64,000 nt of DNA from an uncultured Gammaproteobacteria bacterium (GCA_964537315.1 CAZIAP010000001.1:121149-185148), one strand, 5' to 3'. Shown: positions 4,428 through 55,517, counted from the first letter of the stretch. The notes: generated from the sequence alone by a model not told the origin. Numbers and translations: made by a program.

Positions 4428-5954
4428 ATGTTTCGAAGCGGACTTCGTTATAAACCTCAGTGGAATACACGTGCGTACTCATATGATCCGTTGCTTTTGT
4501 ATTTATTTGCGACGCTCATGACATTTGTTGCTTGTTTGGCACAAGTGTTGATTGTCTCCTTGTCAGGTCAAGGATATACGTACCTATTATTTTTTGTTGC
4601 AATAGTGGCTAGTGCTTGGATTGGAGGATTTAGTACCGGAGTATACTCTACACTTCTTTCAGCCTGTATCGCTTATGCATTCTTTATACCCCCTTTGTAC
4701 ACAGTGACATTGAAAGATCCATCTTATCTCATAGGAAGTTTTATTTTTTTCCTCGAAGGTGTATTCATAAGTTACCTGAGTCAGAATATGCATACTGCTC
4801 TTAAAAATTCAATTTTAAAAAATACTGAACTGATCAGAAGTGAAGAGAGATATAGGTCAGTAGTAGAGTCTGTTAAAGATTATGCTATTTATACTCTTGA
4901 TAAAGAAGGATATATTACTAGCTGGAATCGCGGATCAGAACACACGAAGGGATATACACTGGAAGAAGTTTTAAAAAAGCACTACTCGCTTTTTTTCGAA
5001 CCTACAGAGATTAGCGAAGGTATTCCCTGGAAGTATCTAGCCTTAGCGACTGAGAATGGTCGTTATGAGTTTGAGGGATGGAGAAGTAAAAAAGATGGTA
5101 CAAAATTCTGGGCAAACAGTATTATAACCCCAATAATTGATGACTCAAAAACAGTATGTGGTTTTTCGGTTATTTCTCGTGACCTAACGGAAAGAAAAGA
5201 GATTGAGAGGAGAAAGGATGATTTTATCAGTATTGCTAGTCATGAATTGAGAACGCCTGTGACGAGTGTAAAAGTTTTTACCCAGGTATTATTAAAAATA
5301 TTTAGTCGGCACTCTGACAAATCTCCGGTTAAGTATTTGATGAAAATGGATGCTCAGATGGATAAATTAACGCTGTTGATCAATGACTTACTTGATGTTT
5401 CAAGAATTCAATCTGGTAAGCTTGAATTTAAGCAAGAGGTTTTGAATTTGCAGGAAATAGCAAATGAAGTAGTTGAAAATATGCAGACATTGTCAGATAG
5501 ACATACGATTGTCTGTACTGGCAGTGTTTATGATTATGTGCTTGCTGATAAAGATCGTATAGGACAAGTTTTAATAAATCTAATTTCAAATGCGATAAAG
5601 TACTCTCCTAACGCTGATACTGTAGATGTAGCCCTTACACAGAATGAATCGGAAGTGATTGTATCCGTTCGAGATTATGGCGTGGGAATACCCGAGGATT
5701 ATAAAGAAAAAATTTTCGAACGATTTTTTAGAGTATATGATGATAGAGAAAAGACGTATCCAGGTTTAGGTATGGGATTATATATCTCAGCAGAGATAGT
5801 AAAGAGGCACAACGGAAGAATTTGGGTAGAAAGTGAGCTTGGAAAAGGGTCTATATTCTATATGAGTATTCCGGTCAGCGCACAAAACCAAGCAGCGACA
5901 GCTTTTAAAAACGATATCAATGAAACTTTGTACGCTCCAGGTGTACAACCTTAA
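4428..5954 (+). CDS. Membrane sensor histidine kinase (TM region, PAS, HisKA, HATPase)
   Basis: Several N-terminal TM helices; PAS-like segment (YAIYTLDKEGYITSWNRGSEHTKGYTLEEV); H-box (FISIASHELRTPVTSV); N/G boxes (GLGMGLYIS...GKGSIFY). Confidence 0.85.
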   Translation: MFRSGLRYKPQWNTRAYSYDPLLLYLFATLMTFVACLAQVLIVSLSGQGYTYLLFFVAIVASAWIGGFSTGVYSTLLSACIAYAFFIPPLYTVTLKDPSYLIGSFIFFLEGVFISYLSQNMHTALKNSILKNTELIRSEERYRSVVESVKDYAIYTLDKEGYITSWNRGSEHTKGYTLEEVLKKHYSLFFEPTEISEGIPWKYLALATENGRYEFEGWRSKKDGTKFWANSIITPIIDDSKTVCGFSVISRDLTERKEIERRKDDFISIASHELRTPVTSVKVFTQVLLKIFSRHSDKSPVKYLMKMDAQMDKLTLLINDLLDVSRIQSGKLEFKQEVLNLQEIANEVVENMQTLSDRHTIVCTGSVYDYVLADKDRIGQVLINLISNAIKYSPNADTVDVALTQNESEVIVSVRDYGVGIPEDYKEKIFERFFRVYDDREKTYPGLGMGLYISAEIVKRHNGRIWVESELGKGSIFYMSIPVSAQNQAATAFKNDINETLYAPGVQP

Positions 5955-46658: not shown

Positions 46659-47898
46659 CGAAGCAGAGCCAAAAGTTATGCATATTGATTTAAACTCTTG
46701 TTTTGCGACAGTGGAACAACAGGCAAATCCTTTGATACGTAATAGGCCCGTTGCAGTTGCTGCAGGTATTGCTGAAGCATGTTGTGTGATATCACCATCC
46801 TATGAAGCTAAAAGAATGGGAGTTAAGGTGGGATTTAGGGTAAGAGACGCAAAAGCGGTGTGTCCTGATATCATAATACTTCCTCCTGATCCTCCTAAGT
46901 ACCGTGCCGTGCACTTATTGTTTTCTAAAATATTTAAAAGCTACTCGCCAAACGTTGTTCCTAAATCTATAGATGAAGCAATAATTGATTTTGCAGGAAC
47001 TAAGTATTTAGAAATTGGACTGGAAAAAGTAGGAATGGAGATTAAGCACAGAATGAAGTCAGAAATAGGTGACTATATAACCTGCAATATAGGTATCGGA
47101 ACAAACAGGTTCTTAGCAAAGACAGCCGCATCGCTACATAAACCTGATGGTATGGATACTATTACACACACAAATCTTCGTGAAGTATTTGAGACATTAG
47201 AATTAATAGACCTTTGTGGAATAAATACACGATTTCAGGCACGTCTTTTTGTCGCGGGAATTTCAAATCCTATCCAATTTTTAGATACTTCAGCATTTAA
47301 ACTGAAATCAGAAGTATTTAAGAGTGTAGAAGGATACAGATGGTACATGAGACTGAGAGGCTGGGAAGTAGATAATGTTGAATGGGGAAGAAAAACTTAT
47401 GGTCAGTCTTATGCATTGAAAGAGTTTACAAATGACATATCAATACTTGCCCCACTGCTTATGAAGCTCTGTGAAAAAATGGGAAGAAGACTCAGACGAG
47501 GAGGATATTACGCATCAGGTATACATGTTGGATGCATATATGAAAAATCCGAGTACTGGCATGAGGGAAGAAAGGTTGATAAGAAGCTATATAACACCAC
47601 AGATATATATAAAGAAGCAATCAAATTGCTGGCAAAAGCTCCTATGAAACAGACAGTTTCGCATTTAATGGTTAACTGCTACAATCTTTCTCCATTGTCT
47701 ATAATGCAGCTGGAACTGGACGATACTGAGAGACAAAAAAAATGGAGACTGAGCAGCTCTATGGATATGGTAAATGATCGTTATGGAGAGTATGTAGTTA
47801 CACCTGCCTTAATGATGGGACTAAATGACAAAGTTATAGACCGGGTTCCGTTCGGAGGTGTCAAAGAATTAGAAGATATTTATGGCAGACAAGTTTAA
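46642..47898 (+). CDS. dinB: Y-family DNA polymerase (DinB/Pol IV-like)
   Basis: MHIDLNSCFATVEQ catalytic motif, SIDEA, and the palm/finger/little-finger organisation. Confidence 0.85.
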   Translation: MELPINEAEPKVMHIDLNSCFATVEQQANPLIRNRPVAVAAGIAEACCVISPSYEAKRMGVKVGFRVRDAKAVCPDIIILPPDPPKYRAVHLLFSKIFKSYSPNVVPKSIDEAIIDFAGTKYLEIGLEKVGMEIKHRMKSEIGDYITCNIGIGTNRFLAKTAASLHKPDGMDTITHTNLREVFETLELIDLCGINTRFQARLFVAGISNPIQFLDTSAFKLKSEVFKSVEGYRWYMRLRGWEVDNVEWGRKTYGQSYALKEFTNDISILAPLLMKLCEKMGRRLRRGGYYASGIHVGCIYEKSEYWHEGRKVDKKLYNTTDIYKEAIKLLAKAPMKQTVSHLMVNCYNLSPLSIMQLELDDTERQKKWRLSSSMDMVNDRYGEYVVTPALMMGLNDKVIDRVPFGGVKELEDIYGRQV

Positions 47899-48515
47899 TC
47901 CTCTCCGGCCGCTTCAAACGGAGTGATATATATTTCTCTATTTATAGGCAGAGGTGCTTCTTGATGAGGATCCTCACCTATAACTTCTTGTAAAAATTCT
48001 TCCCGAGCTGCTTGAAATATATCAAGCTCAGTTTGAGCATAAGAGACCTTACGTGTATTTTCTTCCATAGTGAGAATTACATTGTTTTCATGAGCTTTTT
48101 GTAAAATGTCGAATCTTTCTACTAAATCTTGAGTTCCTACATAAAGTAATTCCTTGGTCACTTTAACGTTTCCGGCATTAGCACTTCTTTCTGCTTCTTC
48201 CAACGCCAGATCTTCAACAGTTTTTTCTGATTCTTTTTTTGCTTCATTAAAAAGTTTTCTAGCAGCCTCAAGATCTCTTTCCTGTTTTGCTTTTTCAGCT
48301 TTTGCAAGTTTTGTTTCTACTGTAGCCTGTTTAATCTCACTTAGGTGTTCTAATTCCTGAGTTAAAAATGTACTTTGTTCAAGTGGGTTTGAAGCGACTT
48401 GCGCAATAACATCTGTAACTTTTTCCTCAGGGATTTCTTTGGCAGGTCGTGAGATACCGCGCTCAGCAGCAGATTTAAATAAACTACGTAATGACATTGA
48501 TTCAATGCTTTTCAT
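47895..48515 (-). CDS. Hypothetical coiled-coil protein
   Basis: 206 aa, E/K/A-rich helical. Overlaps the polymerase stop by 4 nt (convergent). No family recognised. Confidence 0.35.
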   Translation of the reverse strand: MKSIESMSLRSLFKSAAERGISRPAKEIPEEKVTDVIAQVASNPLEQSTFLTQELEHLSEIKQATVETKLAKAEKAKQERDLEAARKLFNEAKKESEKTVEDLALEEAERSANAGNVKVTKELLYVGTQDLVERFDILQKAHENNVILTMEENTRKVSYAQTELDIFQAAREEFLQEVIGEDPHQEAPLPINREIYITPFEAAGED

Positions 48516-48622
48516 ATGATATTACAAAAATAAAACGTATCGAGTATTAAAGCCCAAAAGGTGTAAAAGGGCCAGATATCTATCGAGAGTATATATATTT
48601 TATCTTAAGCGAATCTAGTAAA

Positions 48623-49945
48623 TCAAGAAGCAGTTTGAATTGTCTCGTCAACCTCAATTGACTCGTCGGGAGCAAATCTATCCGGATCAATCATAAACCC
48701 CTTTAGGTCTTTTCTTCCTACGATAATAGGATATTTAAGATGTGATCTGTCAACTATAGATGCATCGCTAACAACTCTCTTACCTGCGATTTCCAGAGTA
48801 AGATTCACTAGAGGTCGGTATTTTTGACCACTGGCAGATCTAATAAACACTTTCCTGTCGTTTGAGATAGGTATATTTAGTTCTCGGGCAAGAGACTCAT
48901 CAATAGATGATCTGTATGCGCCGGTATCTAGTTTTGCATCGACTACTTTTTCTTTTGATTCACCAATTACTTTAACTGACTCTACAACTCCCAGAACTTT
49001 CTTTTCAAAGTGCACTTTTGCTGCAAATGGAGCCGCAAAAAGTGATTTTGCGACCTCTACTCCTCTCTCAGGTGTAGGGATATCCATATTCTCTACTCGC
49101 TCAAGCCTGGTACGAAGTGAGGTGAGATTAGCTATCTGAATTGATAGCCCTGGTCTTGCGTTTAGCTCAAGTACCAATGGACCCTTTTTTCCGTCGAGTA
49201 CAAGATCTACTCCAACGTATCCAAGCCCTGACACCATCTGTGTTTTTGAAGCCATTAATAATAAAGAATCCCATTCGGGTATCTTGATGCCTTGTACTTT
49301 AATCTTAGTCTCAGGAATATACTGAATAACTTTATCATGCCACACACCAGAGGTAGATATCCCCGTTTTGATATCAATTCCCAAAGCAATTGCGCCCTGG
49401 TGTAGATTGGCTTTACCGCCTGACTCTTTCGTGGGAAGCCTGATCATCGCCATTACAGGTACTCCATTTAGTACTATAATTCGTATATCAGGAATTCCTA
49501 TAGCTTTAATTTTTTTAAAAAATGGATTTTCGGTTAATCTCTCTTCTATGAACGCTCTATCAGGCAAATACTGTAAAGAATATGCACCTTCTAATATATC
49601 TAAGATATGATTTTCCAAACCATCAACATCAAACTCTTGCCCGCCGACTGTTTTACCGTAATTTCCATCCCAGTTTTTAATTGGAAGAATACCTCCTCCT
49701 CCCCAGCCTCTTGCGGGTTTTACTGCAAATCCTTGTGAAGGTAAACTTGTCCAGTCAAACGCTTTTATCTCTTCTCTAGAAGAAAACTCAGCAAAAAGCT
49801 CAGCTGTCGGTATACCATGTGCTAAAAGAAGCTTTTTTGCCTCGAGTTTATCATCAGCTACATACCGAGCTGAGGGTGGATTATAACGTCTGATGTAAAG
49901 ATAGTTCCGGGCGTTCATACCCAGAATTTTGTTGCTAACTGCCAT
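48623..49945 (-). CDS. RimK-like ATP-grasp (alpha-L-glutamate ligase-like) fused to a C-terminal retropepsin-like 'putative ATP-dependent Zn protease' domain
   Basis: ATP-grasp segments (GFAVKPARGWGGGGI ... LELNARPG) and a C-terminal LDTGAYRSSI...YPIIVGRKDLKGFMIDP (DTGA aspartyl-protease-like, DUF785-type). Start moved to MAVSNK, giving an 11-nt overlap with the upstream gene. Confidence 0.65.
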   Translation of the reverse strand: MAVSNKILGMNARNYLYIRRYNPPSARYVADDKLEAKKLLLAHGIPTAELFAEFSSREEIKAFDWTSLPSQGFAVKPARGWGGGGILPIKNWDGNYGKTVGGQEFDVDGLENHILDILEGAYSLQYLPDRAFIEERLTENPFFKKIKAIGIPDIRIIVLNGVPVMAMIRLPTKESGGKANLHQGAIALGIDIKTGISTSGVWHDKVIQYIPETKIKVQGIKIPEWDSLLLMASKTQMVSGLGYVGVDLVLDGKKGPLVLELNARPGLSIQIANLTSLRTRLERVENMDIPTPERGVEVAKSLFAAPFAAKVHFEKKVLGVVESVKVIGESKEKVVDAKLDTGAYRSSIDESLARELNIPISNDRKVFIRSASGQKYRPLVNLTLEIAGKRVVSDASIVDRSHLKYPIIVGRKDLKGFMIDPDRFAPDESIEVDETIQTAS

Positions 49946-50855
49946 GTTGTGTGATTGGAGAAAATCTAAAGTACTCGGTAAACCGCAATCCGAAGTACCT
50001 ACCAATTAAGATATTAAGCGGAATGACAATTAACATTGATTCTGGATATAAGATTACAAAGTTTCTAATTGGTTCATAAGATAGTAAAAAGTATCCTAAT
50101 ACTCCAAGTGAGACGGTAATAGCTGAGATCATTACCATGTCAGGGAATGTACGATCAATCTGAAGTTCAACTATGTTTTGGCTAAGCAAAATTAGAAGTA
50201 GTACAGGAAAAATAGATATTTGAGTAACTGCAAGTATTCCAATTTGTGCACTAATTGTAAGAGTTGCTAGAATTCCGACTGAAACAATAAAGATTGTAAG
50301 AGCCATTTTTGCAAACTGCATAATTCGAAACCTTCTGAGAATTAGTCGTGCAAGTGTCGAAGTTAGAATGATTGTCGTAAGCAATATAAGTCCTGCAGCT
50401 ATACCAGTAGCTACAAGTGTAATTGAAAGCGCGACCGGTAGTAACATAGCAAGGGATGGAACGCCTACAACATGTCTGAAAAACACTACAAAAGTAGCTA
50501 AGAGCGGGAGAAGTAAAATAAGTATAACTGTATTCGATGGCACTCCTGCTCTAACTGAGTGTTGTATGGCAAAAGCGATAAAATTGGTTACAGTAGGTTT
50601 TTCCACCGATCTTCTTTCAAAAAGCTCCTGAATTCGTTGTGCACGTTCTTCGTTGTCTTCAACTCGGGTAACGTCATCTTGACGCAAACGTTCAAGTTGG
50701 GCAATAGCTTCTGCAGAAGGTGAGGCTTCTGCCTCTTCTGTTGCTTCTTCTGTCTCCACTAATGGAGAAGTAGGTATTGTTTTTTGTGCTCTAATAGGAG
50801 CAGCAACAAAGAATAGAAACATTAAAAAAGTCGCCAAAATATATATTTTTTTCAT
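49935..50855 (-). CDS. 7TM domain protein of the 'inactive transglutaminase-fused 7TM' family
   Basis: Signal peptide (MKKIYILATFLMFLFFVAAPIRA), acidic linker, then 7 hydrophobic helices. It is the conserved upstream partner of RimK-like ATP-grasp genes. The family assignment comes from the architecture and operon context. Confidence 0.55.
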   Translation of the reverse strand: MKKIYILATFLMFLFFVAAPIRAQKTIPTSPLVETEEATEEAEASPSAEAIAQLERLRQDDVTRVEDNEERAQRIQELFERRSVEKPTVTNFIAFAIQHSVRAGVPSNTVILILLLPLLATFVVFFRHVVGVPSLAMLLPVALSITLVATGIAAGLILLTTIILTSTLARLILRRFRIMQFAKMALTIFIVSVGILATLTISAQIGILAVTQISIFPVLLLILLSQNIVELQIDRTFPDMVMISAITVSLGVLGYFLLSYEPIRNFVILYPESMLIVIPLNILIGRYFGLRFTEYFRFSPITQHGS

Positions 50856-51253
50856 GATGTGTATATTGTACTGTATGTATGCAAAAGGAATCAAGAAAGA
50901 TTAATTATTATGATATGATAAATGCGTCAAGAGAATTAATGAGATATACCTTAAAAATTATTCGACTAAGTTTAATAATCATCCTCTTTATTGTCGTAGT
51001 GTGGATGAATGCGACTCCAGGACACTTCAATACTGGAAATTGTGGATGTGAGTTGAACTATTCTCAAAAAGATTACTCTGAAATTATGATTTGTCCTCAG
51101 GTAGAATGCGAAGATTATCCAGTTATGATAGGTTCGCTGTTTCTAGTTCCGCTTTCATTTATAGACATCAATAGATGACATTGTCAGGATAAACTTCTCG
51201 TCCCGTTTGTTCTTCAAAAATATGGTGCTGCTTGTCCTGAGCATGCCGAAGTG

Positions 51254-51492: not shown

Positions 51493-51533
51493 AACTATAT
51501 ATTTCAAACGTCCAATCCGTCAACTGACGGATT

Positions 51534-51604
51534 CCGAAGACTAGTGCTCTATCCATTAACCCGCCTGCAGTGCAAGCTAGCTTTGCGGGCAGGGCTATGG
51601 GCGC
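51534..51604 (-). pseudogene. Truncated tRNA-Arg 5'-half paralog carrying a 35-nt palindromic insertion in the D-stem. It lies at the predicted transcription start, upstream of the intact tRNA-Arg(TCG).
   Basis: Reverse complement: gcgcccatag[ccctgcccgcaaagctagcttgcactgcaggcggg]ttaatggatagagcactagtcttcgga..., which is the acceptor, D-arm and anticodon-loop bases of tRNA-Arg. There is no pairing anticodon stem and no T-arm. A TTGATT-N17-TGgTAAAAT promoter lies just upstream on the minus strand. Confidence 0.5.
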
Positions 51605-52234: not shown

Positions 52235-53173
52235 ATGCAAGCATATTTATCTATTGTTATTCCTATATATAACGAAGAAGAAAGTATAGAAGAGCTGGTT
52301 GACCAGATAGAATCAGCCGTCAAAAAGATGGAAAAGCCGTACGAGGTTATATTTGTAGATGATGGATCAACAGATAAAACGTTACCGATATTAAAGCGCC
52401 TTGAAAAAGATAAAACTTATATCAAAATCCTCTCTCACAGACGAAACTTAGGTAAGTCACATGCATTGATGCACGGATTTCACAAAGCCAAAGGTGAGTT
52501 TATTGCCACACTTGATGCAGATTTACAGGACGATCCTGAAGAAATTAACATATTACTCAATCACTTGATAGATAAAGACTTAGATATGGTCACCGGATGG
52601 CGTAGAAATAGGCAAGATACTAATGCAATAAAATCGGTTTCCAGAATCGCTAATCAGTTTGTGTTGCGATTATTTAAGCTCAATATTCACGATCTTAATG
52701 CCGGAATAAAAGTTTACCGATCAGATGCTGCAAAAGAACTAAATCTATACGGAGGACTACATAGATTTATCCCAATTATGCTTTCAGAATTAGGTTATAG
52801 GGTTGACGAGCACGAAGTACATAATCGGTCAAGGAAATTTGGGTACTCAAAGTATCGTGCATCTAAGGTACTCACGGACTTACCGGATCTTGCGACAATT
52901 TATTTCCTAACTAAGTTTACGCACAAGCCATTGCATTTCTTTGGGAGAATCGGGATGATCCCATTTTTAACTGGTACAGCGATTCTTGCATATCTATCAT
53001 TTTTAAGAATATTTTTAGATCAAGCGATTGGTACTCGTCCGCTACTTACATTTGGAGTCCTTATGGTTATTTTCGGTGCACAGTTAATATTAACTGGGTT
53101 ATTAGGTGACTTGATTGTTAACCTTCATTTTAAAGAAAAATCAAAACTCCCAATCAAGTATGAGTCGAAATAA
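52235..53173 (+). CDS. Family-2 glycosyltransferase, polyprenol-phosphate sugar synthase type (DPM1/GtrB/ArnC-like) with C-terminal TM helices
   Basis: LSIVIPIYNEEESI...VIFVDDGSTDKT...LDADLQDDPEE motifs, then two C-terminal TM segments. Confidence 0.8.
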   Translation: MQAYLSIVIPIYNEEESIEELVDQIESAVKKMEKPYEVIFVDDGSTDKTLPILKRLEKDKTYIKILSHRRNLGKSHALMHGFHKAKGEFIATLDADLQDDPEEINILLNHLIDKDLDMVTGWRRNRQDTNAIKSVSRIANQFVLRLFKLNIHDLNAGIKVYRSDAAKELNLYGGLHRFIPIMLSELGYRVDEHEVHNRSRKFGYSKYRASKVLTDLPDLATIYFLTKFTHKPLHFFGRIGMIPFLTGTAILAYLSFLRIFLDQAIGTRPLLTFGVLMVIFGAQLILTGLLGDLIVNLHFKEKSKLPIKYESK

Positions 53174-55517
53174 CCTTGTCTCTTCTGTTAAAAAAATTGT
53201 TCGTTTTTTACTAGGCGTACCTATTACAATCGCTGCATTTTATTTTATAGGAATGTTCCTCTGGAACGCCAGAGATGAAATTGAGTACTCACTAGCAAAT
53301 GCAAATTACACTTTGCTTTTAGTCGGAATATTGTTTTTTATACTCTTCTTCTTCCTAAAAAATATTATTTGGATTAGAATTCTCAAAAATCTAGGTGCAA
53401 AAGATATTGATACTACAAAGAGTTTTTTTCTGCTCTCCTTCTCAGAGACAAAAAGGTATATTCCCGGTAGTATATTTGCCTATGCTGCAAGAGTAAAGTC
53501 ATATAATGATGCTAATATTCCGTCTAAACTTCTAGTTAAATCGCTCATTATTGATTCCTTATTGCTTGTTATCCCTAGTCTAATTATTAGTATTCCGGGA
53601 ATATTGTTTATTTTTCCGCGCCTCCAACAGCAGTTCCCTGAATACTCTCAATATATTTTACCAGCAACTATTGGTATTTTTGCATTTTCAATGTTAGCGG
53701 TGGTTGCAGCAATTGTACTCGCAAAAAAGAAACTAGGAGTAAGGTCAATTAATATAAGAGATGTCGTAAATAAATATGGAGATCTTTTCTTTTTGTCGTG
53801 CTTATCATGGTTTTTCTTCGGACTTGCCAACTACTTAGTAGCAAGTTCTATTCATGTGCTTGATCCTAAATATATTCTGCAGTTTGCTTCATTTTTTGTC
53901 CTATCTTGGTTTATTGGATATATAAGTATTGTAACTCCGATGGGTCTTGGGGTACGTGAAGGTATAATGATTTTAGGACTTGCTCCCTTCGCTCCACTTT
54001 CAGTAACTTCACTAATTGCGCTTTTTTCAAGGATTAGTTTTATGGCAGGTGAGTTTTTATTTTTGCTGGTAAGTTTTATATTATTCAAAAGTAAGTATCT
54101 ACAAAAATGGTGGAAGTTTGCTGAAAAACATGCGCATGCTGTAATTTTATGGATAGGAATTGTTAGCTATATTATTTATTTTTCCTATGTATCAATTGTT
54201 AAGTATTTGAACTTTTTTATGGGAAAGTTTGATCTTGGCAACATGGATCAGACTGTCTGGAATACCCTCCATGGGCGGATTTTTATGTTTACCAATCCAG
54301 ACAGTACAGAAAATATCAGTAGACTTGCATTTCATGCTGATTTTATTTTGATACTACTGTCACCACTTTATCTAATATGGTCAGATCCAAGAATGCTCTT
54401 AATCCTGCAAACCGTTGTACTTGGGTTAGGTGCATATTTTGTATATAAAATAGGACAACACATACTGAAAGATAATACGATTTCACTAATATTCGCGTAT
54501 GCGTTTCTACTAAATCCACTTGTGCAAAAACAAAATTTGTATGATTTCCATGCGGTCGTATTGGCCACTACTTTTTTGCTTGCAGTATGGTATTTTTTCA
54601 TCAAAAAGAACTTGGTATGGATGACGGTATTTCTCATATTGGCGGTACTTACCAAGGAGAATATTTACTTAATTACTGCAATATTTGGTATATTTCTGAT
54701 AACTCGAAAACATTTTAAACTAGGAAGCATTATTACGATTGTATCTATCACTACTTTTATTTTGCTCATGAAGACTTTTATACCTGAAGCACGTGGTGGC
54801 GAACACTTTGCTGTATCCTTTTTATCAGAGTTTGGAGATAGCTTTGGTGCTGCTGCGATTACAATAATCACAAATCCCATTCAAACAATTCAGGTATTTT
54901 TCGAACATAATGGATTGAGATATCTTAACATGCTTCTGCTTCCATTAGGATATCTGCCTTTTGCTTCACCTTTGTATTTATTATTTGCTGCTCCTGATAT
55001 TGCAAAAAATACACTAGCAGATAACCCCAATTTCAGATCATCATTCTATCAGTATAACGCAGAGATTTTACCGTTTCTCTTTATTTCTTCAATATACGGT
55101 GTTTCATTGCTCATGAAATATTTCCCAAAAAAAATGTTAGTGTATTATATTTTAATTTTTTCTCTAATAGGCACTTGGCTCCACGGGGCTCTACCGTTTG
55201 GTAAATCTCCGTACGTTTCTATATATACTAACCCACGCAGTGATGCTGATCAGATACGAAAGTTTATAGCCGAGATAGATGAAGGAAAAAGTGTTGCTGC
55301 TACCAATAACCTAGGATCACATCTTTCGCGGCGAGAAAACATTTATGTACTTCCAAGAGGGATAAACGAGGCAGACATGATCTTGTTACTAACTGGAGAT
55401 TGGTATGAGTCCAGAGATAATCAGCTTAAACTTATTGAAGATTTACACGCTGATCCTAACTTCAAATTATACTATCAAACGGGTAATTTCTACGGATTTG
55501 AAAGAGTAAAAAAATAA
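53160..55517 (+). CDS. Large polytopic membrane protein: UPF0104 flippase-like (MprF-TM-like) domain fused to a DUF2079-like (GT-C-like) domain
   Basis: Start placed at MSRNNLV, a 14-nt overlap with the GT2 gene. The N-terminal region has the ...IVTPMGLGVREGIMILGL motif of the UPF0104/flippase-like family. The C-terminal ~450 aa are multi-TM with a DUF2079-like pattern. Confidence 0.55.
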   Translation: MSRNNLVSSVKKIVRFLLGVPITIAAFYFIGMFLWNARDEIEYSLANANYTLLLVGILFFILFFFLKNIIWIRILKNLGAKDIDTTKSFFLLSFSETKRYIPGSIFAYAARVKSYNDANIPSKLLVKSLIIDSLLLVIPSLIISIPGILFIFPRLQQQFPEYSQYILPATIGIFAFSMLAVVAAIVLAKKKLGVRSINIRDVVNKYGDLFFLSCLSWFFFGLANYLVASSIHVLDPKYILQFASFFVLSWFIGYISIVTPMGLGVREGIMILGLAPFAPLSVTSLIALFSRISFMAGEFLFLLVSFILFKSKYLQKWWKFAEKHAHAVILWIGIVSYIIYFSYVSIVKYLNFFMGKFDLGNMDQTVWNTLHGRIFMFTNPDSTENISRLAFHADFILILLSPLYLIWSDPRMLLILQTVVLGLGAYFVYKIGQHILKDNTISLIFAYAFLLNPLVQKQNLYDFHAVVLATTFLLAVWYFFIKKNLVWMTVFLILAVLTKENIYLITAIFGIFLITRKHFKLGSIITIVSITTFILLMKTFIPEARGGEHFAVSFLSEFGDSFGAAAITIITNPIQTIQVFFEHNGLRYLNMLLLPLGYLPFASPLYLLFAAPDIAKNTLADNPNFRSSFYQYNAEILPFLFISSIYGVSLLMKYFPKKMLVYYILIFSLIGTWLHGALPFGKSPYVSIYTNPRSDADQIRKFIAEIDEGKSVAATNNLGSHLSRRENIYVLPRGINEADMILLLTGDWYESRDNQLKLIEDLHADPNFKLYYQTGNFYGFERVKK

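Follow-up and report, generated by a model that had tools for sequence, protein, structure and literature searches.

The window analyzed here is a stretch of 64,000 nucleotides (nt) recorded as DNA of an uncultured Gammaproteobacteria bacterium (CAZIAP010000001.1:121149-185148), and our subject is a two-gene cassette on its minus strand. An earlier reading of the sequence, hereafter the original prediction, had proposed that two overlapping genes form a unit in which a seven-transmembrane (7TM) protein is paired with a fusion of an ATP-grasp ligase and a retropepsin-like protease. The open reading frame (ORF) listing of the window bore out this layout. Two long ORFs occupy the minus strand between 48623 and 50894: gene 1 runs from an ATG at 50855 to a stop at 49935-49937 and encodes a membrane protein of 306 residues, and gene 2 runs from an ATG at 49945 to a stop at 48623-48625 and encodes a soluble protein of 440 residues. 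Alignments of homologues agree with both starts. The stop codon of gene 1 lies within the first codons of gene 2 (...CAACATGGCAGTTAG), and this 11-nt overlap predicts translational coupling of gene 2 to gene 1. The motifs originally quoted, GFAVKPARGWGGGGI, LELNARPG, and the DTGA of LDTGAY, were all located in the fusion protein. The G+C content of the cassette is ordinary relative to the remainder of the window, and no paralogues of its genes were found elsewhere within the window.

Gene 2 joins a ligase of the RloC type to a retropepsin-like peptidase in a single polypeptide, as had been predicted. The ATPgrasp_ST family (PF14397) matched residues 13-286 (E = 9.4e-67; 225.6 bits against a Pfam cut-off of 31.4), and the NCBIfam model TIGR02291, “alpha-L-glutamate ligase-like,” reached 298.9 bits (E = 3.6e-89), just below its cut-off of 314.2. 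Residues 5-304, which correspond to the entire RloC, are 43% identical to residues 11-313 of the 314-residue Legionella RloC. The ligase does not qualify as RimK proper: PF08443 covered residues 232-268 only, TIGR00768 reached 50.6 of the 143.4 bits required, and neither Pfam nor NCBIfam reported a match to the PreATP-grasp domain. The nearest solved folds were ArgX/LysX and RimK. In an alignment of 48 fusion proteins, K76, R79, E134, E135, D247, E260, N262, and R264 are invariant; all of these except R79 belong to what we take, from general knowledge of ATP-grasp enzymes, to be the nucleotide- and metal-binding set. AlphaFold returned a confident two-domain model of the fusion protein, with a mean predicted local distance difference test (pLDDT) score of 84.4.

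The C-terminal domain of gene 2 was matched above the Pfam cut-offs by the Zn_protease/RimB-like family (PF05618; E = 3.8e-7) and Asp_protease_2 (PF13650; E = 2.1e-5), which together placed the protease region at residues 332-421; gag-asp_proteas fell under its cut-off (E = 7.6e-6; 26.9 versus 28.2 bits). Both motifs of clan AA peptidases are present, the D-T/S-G-A signature as LDTGA at residues 339-343 and the hydrophobic-hydrophobic-Gly signature as IIVGRKD at residues 407-413. Residues A337, K338, D340, G342, A343, R377, R400, and G410 are invariant in the 48 fusion proteins, and the D-T-G-A, R, and R columns stay invariant in an alignment that includes proteobacterial RloA as well as domains from Chloroflexota and haloarchaea. 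Because the catalytic residues are invariant in all 48 sequences, the ligase and the protease both look active. The protease domain is basic, with a mean net charge of +6.7 over the fusion homologues. It has no signal peptide, follows a domain that requires ATP, and is cytoplasmic. Beyond it the protein ends in a disordered tail that is acidic in the 46 scorable homologues (3-10 D/E and 0-5 K/R residues; mean net charge, −5.9 over all 48). The sequence of the tail is not conserved, and 17 of the 48 proteins end in D or E.

The structures that best matched the C-terminal domain in the Protein Data Bank (PDB) bear directly on its likely substrate. The top matches were 9g59, 9g58, and 2pma; 9G58 and 9G59 are the deposited structures of RloA, and 2PMA is an RloA-like Legionella pneumophila protein that served as the search model in the same study (Lormand et al., PMC12239564). 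RloA cuts runs of at least eight alpha-linked glutamates, which are coordinated by its residues K46, R114, and R137, and the R114A and R137A substitutions abolish cleavage and complementation (PMC12239564). K338, D340, R377, and R400 of gene 2 align with the K/D/R/R columns of 9g58, 9g59, 2pma, and proteobacterial RloA, so that K338, R377, and R400 correspond to K46, R114, and R137, a mapping made by alignment and by spacing (K-x-D, and 23 from R to R in both proteins). Since these positions are kept, the domain is basic, and its best structural matches are RloA structures, the protease probably prefers acidic substrates such as poly-glutamate. At a different locus (L017, 4001..7695), a gene encoding two tandem protease domains and a 7TM module is followed by a ligase gene and then directly, on the same strand, by a gene for a Glu/Leu/Phe/Val dehydrogenase; this single case may hint at glutamate supply.

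Gene 1 encodes an RloB-like membrane protein whose family assignment could be confirmed in part. The original prediction had placed it in the family of 7TM proteins fused to an inactive transglutaminase. The 7TM_transglut family (PF14402) indeed matched residues 88-301 (E = 8.9e-22; 78.2 bits against a Pfam cut-off of 25), but the inactive transglutaminase domain itself (PF14400), present in Legionella and Aeromonas RloB, was not found in gene 1 by Pfam. The alignment to the NCBIfam RloB model (NF052267) is correspondingly restricted to positions 311-504 of 508, and residues 109-299 are 23% identical to residues 311-501 of Legionella RloB. The best 120 listed homologues of gene 1 are mostly 300-320 residues long and carry PF14402 alone. 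The predicted signal peptide, acidic segment, and seven helices were all upheld by homologue alignment, charge, and the AlphaFold model. Ala23-Gln24 at the predicted cleavage site is invariant or nearly so among 40 homologues, whose alignment favors Met1 as the start, whereas the gene caller placed it at Met12. The mature N-terminal segment sits where RloB has its inactive transglutaminase domain. It holds 10 K/R and 17 D/E residues (mean net charge, −7.5 over the 40 homologues) and two conserved motifs, A-T/S-x-x-A-x-A-S-x-S-A and DVTR; model confidence is low at residues 21-66.

The seven helices of gene 1 were modeled at residues 107-130, 135-150, 152-175, 180-205, 215-233, 237-259, and 271-298. 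The data fit a topology in which the N terminus lies outside and the C terminus in the cytoplasm; the latter placement follows from the signal peptide, the positive-inside charge distribution, and a Halobacterium protein in which the 7TM module is fused to the ligase (see below). Toward the C terminus lies the motif GRYFGLRxxEYFRF, of which G285, R286, Y287, F288, G289, L290, R291, E294, R297, and F298 are invariant among the 40 homologues. Related forms occur in Legionella RloB, in the Halobacterium fusion right before its linker, and in a gene fragment 5′ of the large fusion protein P0325. We propose that this motif is the docking site of the ligase. The coordinates of all features are given in Table 1.

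Table 1. Features of the cassette and its surroundings in the window
Feature	Coordinates	Strand	Basis
Promoter-like site TTGATT-18-TACAAT, just 5′ of gene 1	50865..50894	-	Consensus scan, 9/12 matches
Gene 1, RloB-like seven-helix membrane protein without transglutaminase domain, 306 residues plus stop	49935..50855	-	ORF and PF14402
Signal peptide MKKIYILATFLMFLFFVAAPIRA, predicted cleavage before Gln24	50787..50855	-	Basic n-region, then hydrophobic core; hydropathy
Extracellular N-terminal segment, acidic, partly helical	50538..50786	-	Homologue alignment
Seven transmembrane helices, residues 107-290	49986..50537	-	AlphaFold model
Cytoplasmic C-terminal motif GRYFGLRxxEYFRF	49962..50003	-	Alignment of 40 homologues
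Gene 1/gene 2 overlap, 11 nt	49935..49945	-	Gene 1 stop within first codons of gene 2
Gene 2, RloC-type ATP-grasp ligase fused to retropepsin-like peptidase, 440 residues plus stop	48623..49945	-	ORF and Pfam/NCBIfam
ATP-grasp ligase domain, residues 5-304	49034..49933	-	Alignment to Legionella RloC
Interdomain linker APFAAKVHFEKK, 12 residues	48998..49033	-	RloC ends at aligned ...SLFA; pLDDT <50 at residues 308-314
Retropepsin-like aspartic peptidase, short-flap type, residues 317-421	48683..48997	-	Pfam and PDB matches
Catalytic D340 in DTGA	48917..48928	-	Gene 2 protease domain; also K338, R377, R400
Disordered acidic C-terminal tail DRFAPDESIEVDETIQTAS	48626..48682	-	pLDDT <50 at residues 427-440
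Acidic coiled-coil-like protein, 206 residues, 107 nt 3′ of the cassette	47895..48515	-	No family match (Pfam, NCBIfam)
Cys-rich membrane ORF, 99 residues	50879..51178	+	ORF listing and gene caller
Degenerate partial copy of the neighboring tRNA-Arg(TCG) gene	51509..51604	-	Sequence comparison

The host of the cassette is a bacterium of the Patescibacteria, or candidate phyla radiation (CPR). This assignment rests in part on the closest relatives found: a scan of a genome collection, with patterns built from one sequence, returned three close relatives, and two of the three genome records are metagenome-assembled genomes (MAGs) of Candidatus Levyibacteriota with 80-81% identity. Contig L003 (CAYVAJ010000024.1), which is labeled “uncultured Gammaproteobacteria bacterium,” holds a CPR-type cassette with 84% and 78% protein identity to that of the window; its label is probably a binning or labeling error. 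The pairing of the two genes is kept among relatives: in seven other CPR genomes (L003-L012), a 7TM gene lies directly 5′ of the fusion gene. In these seven loci the two genes are tightly packed; by the called coordinates they overlap by 14 nt in three loci and are 13 nt apart in one. The flanks, which include genes for SecA, EF-P, an M3 peptidase, and PBP1a, have nothing in common. Neither of the outcomes named beforehand as fatal to the original prediction, an absence of profile matches and a breakup of the gene pair among relatives, was thus observed. In one Levyibacteriota MAG (L004, 4434..5392), the 7TM gene is broken into two frames, with ORFs at 4434..4892 and 4877..5392; given the coverage of 2.9× stated in the contig name, this probably reflects a sequencing error and not a pseudogene. 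A search at E ≤ 1e-5 gave 7,503 relatives of the fusion protein; the top 120 all measured 411-466 residues, with source labels, where given, of Patescibacteria, Saccharimonadia, Daviesbacteria, and one Candidatus Sulfotelmatobacter. The ligase-protease fusion is thus no peculiarity of the window, as it is the standard architecture in Patescibacteria.

To place the protease in a wider context, we searched the full library with this domain alone, which yielded 852 representatives at E ≤ 1e-3, and followed these with Pfam scans and with inspection of sequences and gene contexts. The same three modules recurred in other combinations. In Proteobacteria they are three separate genes. In an architecture that we refer to as the Chloroflexota type, a signal anchor, one or two protease domains, and the 7TM module form one protein (P0258, from Chloroflexota, and P0243; loci L017, L019, and L020), and the ATPgrasp_ST ligase is encoded by a gene of its own that comes next and overlaps the first. 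Operons of this type and those of Proteobacteria show overlaps of 4 to 8 nt, and the order of 7TM module, then ligase, is kept in these architectures too. Two further arrangements came from the plasmid collection. On a plasmid of Halobacterium sp. DL1 (CP007061.1; L016, 3164..4918), the seven-helix module and the ATPgrasp_ST ligase form a single intact ORF of 584 residues; the stretch that holds this ORF is without listed annotation and adjoins transposase genes. Haloarchaea also have proteins in which RimK proper is fused to the protease, with no 7TM neighbor. In three larger relatives, P0325 (798 residues), P0331 (916 residues), and P0285 (688 residues), the ligase and protease are followed by a YdjC-like domain or by one of the type of MATCAP, the tubulin tyrosine carboxypeptidase family. 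At locus L018, a gene fragment 5′ of a larger relative ends in the C-terminal motif of the 7TM module.

The short-flap protease of these shuffled architectures is 36-48% identical to the domain in the window. All three pairwise fusions were thus found: ligase with protease in CPR, protease with 7TM in Chloroflexota, and 7TM with ligase in Halobacterium. Because every pairwise fusion exists, we regard the comparison as strong evidence that the three modules act together physically, presumably as one complex. The tandem duplication of the protease domain in relatives such as P0243 would fit an active unit built from two domains, as in the homodimers of clan AA. It is the fusion partner that sets the side of the membrane on which the protease lies: outside in the Chloroflexota-type proteins and in the cytoplasm in CPR.

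Iyer and colleagues, in 2009, are said to have been probably the first to predict this gene neighborhood computationally. The original prediction had called the neighborhood a membrane-associated system for ligation and processing that was still uncharacterized; the general idea holds up, but the latter description has been overtaken by two studies (PMC12239564 and PMC11957791). The rloABC genes of P. aeruginosa were characterized genetically and structurally in 2025 (Lormand et al., mBio, PMC12239564). They contribute to cell shape, to biofilm formation, and to tolerance of hypo-osmotic conditions, which are lethal to rlo mutants, and homeostasis of glutamate or polyglutamate was raised by the authors as an explanation to consider (PMC12239564). 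In genetic terms, rloB and rloC are epistatic to the protease genes: the defects of a mutant that lacks all three proteases are suppressed when either rloB or rloC is deleted (PMC12239564). Owing to this suppression, the Pseudomonas protease is taken to act on a product made by RloB and RloC.

As canonical examples of rloABC, we used a plasmid of Legionella adelaidensis (L014) and Aeromonas caviae (L013). The cassette shares with them an ATPgrasp_ST ligase, a PF14402 module with the same C-terminal motif, a DTG retropepsin with the K/R/R residues, overlapping genes, and the order of 7TM gene, then ligase gene, and it encodes all three modules of an Rlo system in one overlapping gene pair. It differs in having two genes rather than three, with the protease attached to the C terminus of the ligase. 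The main contrast with Pseudomonas lies in the location of the protease: RloA is secreted by means of a signal peptide, whereas the CPR protease is cytoplasmic, has none, and carries a shorter flap. RloB carries PF14400, whereas the CPR 7TM protein has a cleavable signal peptide and a mostly acidic segment of about 80 residues instead. To our knowledge, CPR bacteria have no outer membrane.

The second point of comparison is provided by RimB, RimK, and the RimBK hybrid, which have been characterized biochemically (Little et al., JBC 2025, PMC11957791). The poly-alpha-glutamate made by RimK is degraded by RimB, which also stimulates RimK (PMC11957791). As in the cassette, the ATP-grasp ligase has a cytoplasmic retropepsin-like endopeptidase as its partner, separate or fused; in this case the endopeptidase cuts poly-glutamate. 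The stimulation of RimK by RimB offers a rationale for holding both activities in one complex. RimBK, however, has its protease at the N terminus (RimB portion, residues 1-163), whereas the CPR protein has the ligase first. RimBK also contains a true RimK ligase (PF08443 and PreATP-grasp), acts on ribosomal protein S6, and lacks a membrane partner, in contrast to the ligase of the window, which belongs to the RloC/ATPgrasp_ST clade. A third system, CapBCA/PgsBCA, links ATP-dependent polymerization of glutamate at the membrane with export and with a depolymerase of its own; it uses a Mur-ligase-type fold, gamma linkage, and other membrane components. Its likeness to the cassette is a working analogy only, with no homology detected or claimed.

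We interpret the cassette as the Patescibacteria form of the Rlo system, in which a membrane-docked ligase makes glutamate chains and a cytoplasmic protease trims them, and we give this interpretation a rough probability of 0.55. The cytoplasmic tail of the 7TM protein would serve as the docking site for the ligase, which would spend ATP to link L-glutamate residues by alpha-peptide bonds, whether as free chains or as extensions of an acceptor. The protease domains of two fusion chains would pair to become active and would cut long runs of glutamate, which could limit chain length or release the product; the protease might also stimulate the ligase, as RimB does RimK. Finally, the 7TM protein would either deliver the acidic product to the surface or make the enzyme responsive to envelope state. 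By analogy with rloABC, the physiological role is likely to be envelope or osmotic homeostasis.

Several observations weigh against this interpretation. None of the curated NCBIfam models for RloA, RloB, and TIGR02291 was matched above its cut-off: the RloA3 model gave an E value of 1.3e-11, the RloA1, RloA2, and RloA3 models scored 24.7-44.5 bits against cut-offs of 210-280, and RloB scored 45.2 bits against 900. In the alignment of the protease to Legionella RloA, at 23% identity, about 29 residues just past the DTG region are missing; overall, the CPR domain is without about 23-29 residues of the RloA flap region, and with this shorter flap its specificity could differ from that of RloA. 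Glutamate as the substrate of the ligase was deduced from the protease and not from the ligase itself, and no third gene that might hint at an acceptor is conserved beside the pair across the seven related genomes. The CPR protease is inside the cell, whereas that of Pseudomonas is secreted and the Chloroflexota-type fusions tether theirs outside, from which it follows that either the substrate can be reached from both faces of the membrane or the roles differ. Lastly, the model of the 7TM protein is of moderate confidence (pLDDT, 71.7), and searches of solved structures with it found no specific relative among transporters or channels, for which reasons an export role of the 7TM protein is a guess.

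A broader formulation would cover Rlo-type systems as a whole. These may be three-part membrane machines in which a cytoplasmic ligase seated on a seven-helix conduit polymerizes glutamate, and a retropepsin on either face serves as a ruler of chain length or a release factor; in CPR, the outcome would be a surface layer of short poly-alpha-glutamate chains or a tension-gated glutamate osmostat. We put this forward as speculation and consider it improbable as it stands. If it were true, the layer or the osmostat would be an undescribed mechanism of the bacterial envelope or of osmoregulation.

Three further explanations share parts of the evidence. In the first, ligase and protease would reversibly cycle the main anionic osmolyte, glutamate, between polymer and monomer entirely within the cytoplasm, as an osmostat, and the 7TM protein would sense the envelope or membrane tension, tune the two activities against each other, and transport nothing. 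A single cytoplasmic CPR polypeptide with both synthetic and degradative activities would suit such a cycle, as would the hypo-osmotic lethality of rlo mutants, the homeostasis raised by the authors of that work, and the lack of a transporter-like fold among the structural matches of the 7TM protein. What the 7TM family conserves, moreover, is the membrane core and the cytoplasmic motif, and its outside portion can be a transglutaminase-like domain, an acidic segment, or a protease. No recognizable sensing domain was found, however, and the extracytoplasmic protease of Proteobacteria and of the Chloroflexota-type fusions implies that the substrate crosses the membrane, so we rate this explanation as doubtful.

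Decoration of an envelope glycopolymer or lipid-linked sugar, which we hold to be of similarly low likelihood, is suggested by the Pfam name of the ligase family, “sugar-transfer associated ATP-grasp.” Here the ligase would attach amino acids to a carboxylate or amine on a sugar; flipping or export of the carrier would fall to the 7TM protein, and processing of a peptide stem to the protease. One relative fuses the ligase and protease to a YdjC-like carbohydrate deacetylase, and genes of cell wall metabolism occur near several cassettes: PBP1a and an S11 carboxypeptidase at L011, FemAB and a Mur ligase at L008, an M23 peptidase and FtsX at L007, and, in the window, a glycosyltransferase gene 1.1 kb away, past tRNA genes. 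None of these neighbors, however, is conserved across the loci, the closest folds of the ligase (ArgX/LysX and RimK) act on the C termini of proteins or peptides, and the protease retains the residues that bind poly-glutamate.

Modification of ribosomal protein S6 or another cytoplasmic tail in the manner of RimK and RimB, with the membrane gene as a mere neighbor, appears quite unlikely. The CPR protease is cytoplasmic like RimB, active RimB-RimK hybrids exist, haloarchaeal RimK-retropepsin proteins have the same domain order and no 7TM neighbor, and the MATCAP-type carboxypeptidase domain of other relatives fits editing of protein C-terminal tails. Against these points stand the ligase, which by its TIGR00768 score and the missing PreATP-grasp match is of the RloC and not the RimK type, and the 7TM gene, which is adjacent and tightly packed at every locus examined and is fused to the ligase in Halobacterium. 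In addition, a transposon sequencing study of the Saccharibacterium Southlakia reports an ordinary separate RimB/RimK pair that is non-essential, and the supplementary tables searched carry no “transglut” annotation. Within the compass of those tables, this combination shows that Rlo-type and RimB/RimK systems are distinct.

A role of the cassette in RiPP-like maturation (ribosomally synthesized and post-translationally modified peptides), with the divergent Cys-rich ORF as substrate or immunity factor, is effectively refuted by missing co-conservation: the ORF is adjacent, encodes one transmembrane helix and a Cys-rich tail, and was called by the gene caller, but its sole homologue (78 residues, in L004) is parted from the cassette there by a gene of 234 residues, and it is absent from L005 and all more distant loci, with no further relative among 5.8 billion proteins.

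The elements around the pair were assessed separately. The Cys-rich ORF exists as originally described, but its candidacy as a partner of the cassette was rejected, as tblastn of the related loci, ORF listings, and the protein search gave only that one unlinked homologue, and the neighborhood comparison found no small Cys-rich ORF conserved upstream. It is probably a real, lineage-specific small protein: the homologue (L004, 3342..3578, minus strand) shares the pattern W-MN-x-TPG-x-F...GC-x-C...CP-x-V-x-C, and the ORF adjoins tRNA-Lys(CTT) both in the window and in L004. The palindrome AGATATCT reported downstream of the cassette is present at 48574-48581, but is unremarkable, with five copies in the window against 1.94 expected and a count of five reached in 6 of 100 shuffles. 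The hairpin terminator originally proposed at the same end was not sustained: it consists of a 5-bp stem around a 13-nt loop, lacks an adjoining T-run, folds with a z-score of −0.73, and went uncalled in the terminator scan. On the strength of the shuffles, the folding, and the terminator scan, both elements were rejected as regulatory and placed at chance level. The site TTGATT-18-TACAAT is a weak candidate for the promoter of gene 1, offered as a suggestion only; promoter-like sites are not enriched in this region (15 found, 10.7 expected in shuffles).

The 206-residue protein encoded 3′ of the cassette shows weak similarity (20% identity; E = 5e-8) with a 173-residue ORF in the same position in L005; as it does not occur in more distant loci, it was rejected as a third member. 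An anti-phage defense system was likewise rejected, with no PADLOC match for any of the four proteins. The partial copy of tRNA-Arg(TCG) consists of a 5′ acceptor/D-arm (GCGCCCATAGC), a 34-nt GC-rich hairpin insert, and a near-identical D-loop/anticodon region up to the anticodon loop; its 3′ half has diverged, the 3′ strand of the acceptor is missing, and neither ARAGORN nor Rfam calls it. Beyond the tRNA genes, two envelope-related genes overlap (52235..55517, plus strand): one resembles a family-2 glycosyltransferase by its DDGSTD motif, and the other encodes a polytopic membrane protein of 800 residues. Neither neighbor is conserved in related loci.

The cassette represents no new kind of system, and specialists would not be surprised by the fusion on its own. 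Its type is known from rloABC, RimB/RimK, and RimBK; the CPR arrangement, the cytoplasmic short-flap protease, and the shuffling of modules appear to be new, as the literature searched contained no description of any of the three and nothing that combined ATP-grasp, RimK, and Patescibacteria. The biochemical function of RloB and RloC is a question that was raised in 2025, when deletion of either was seen to rescue cells without the proteases. With ligase and protease in one soluble polypeptide and a minimal membrane partner, the CPR cassette offers a compact start for reconstitution in vitro. The pairwise fusions argue for one complex and fix the topology of the membrane protein, and any mechanism must account for a protease that is cytoplasmic in CPR and outside in Proteobacteria and the Chloroflexota-type systems. 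Finally, the thousands of relatives among bacteria with tiny genomes suggest that the function is important for a minimal cell envelope.

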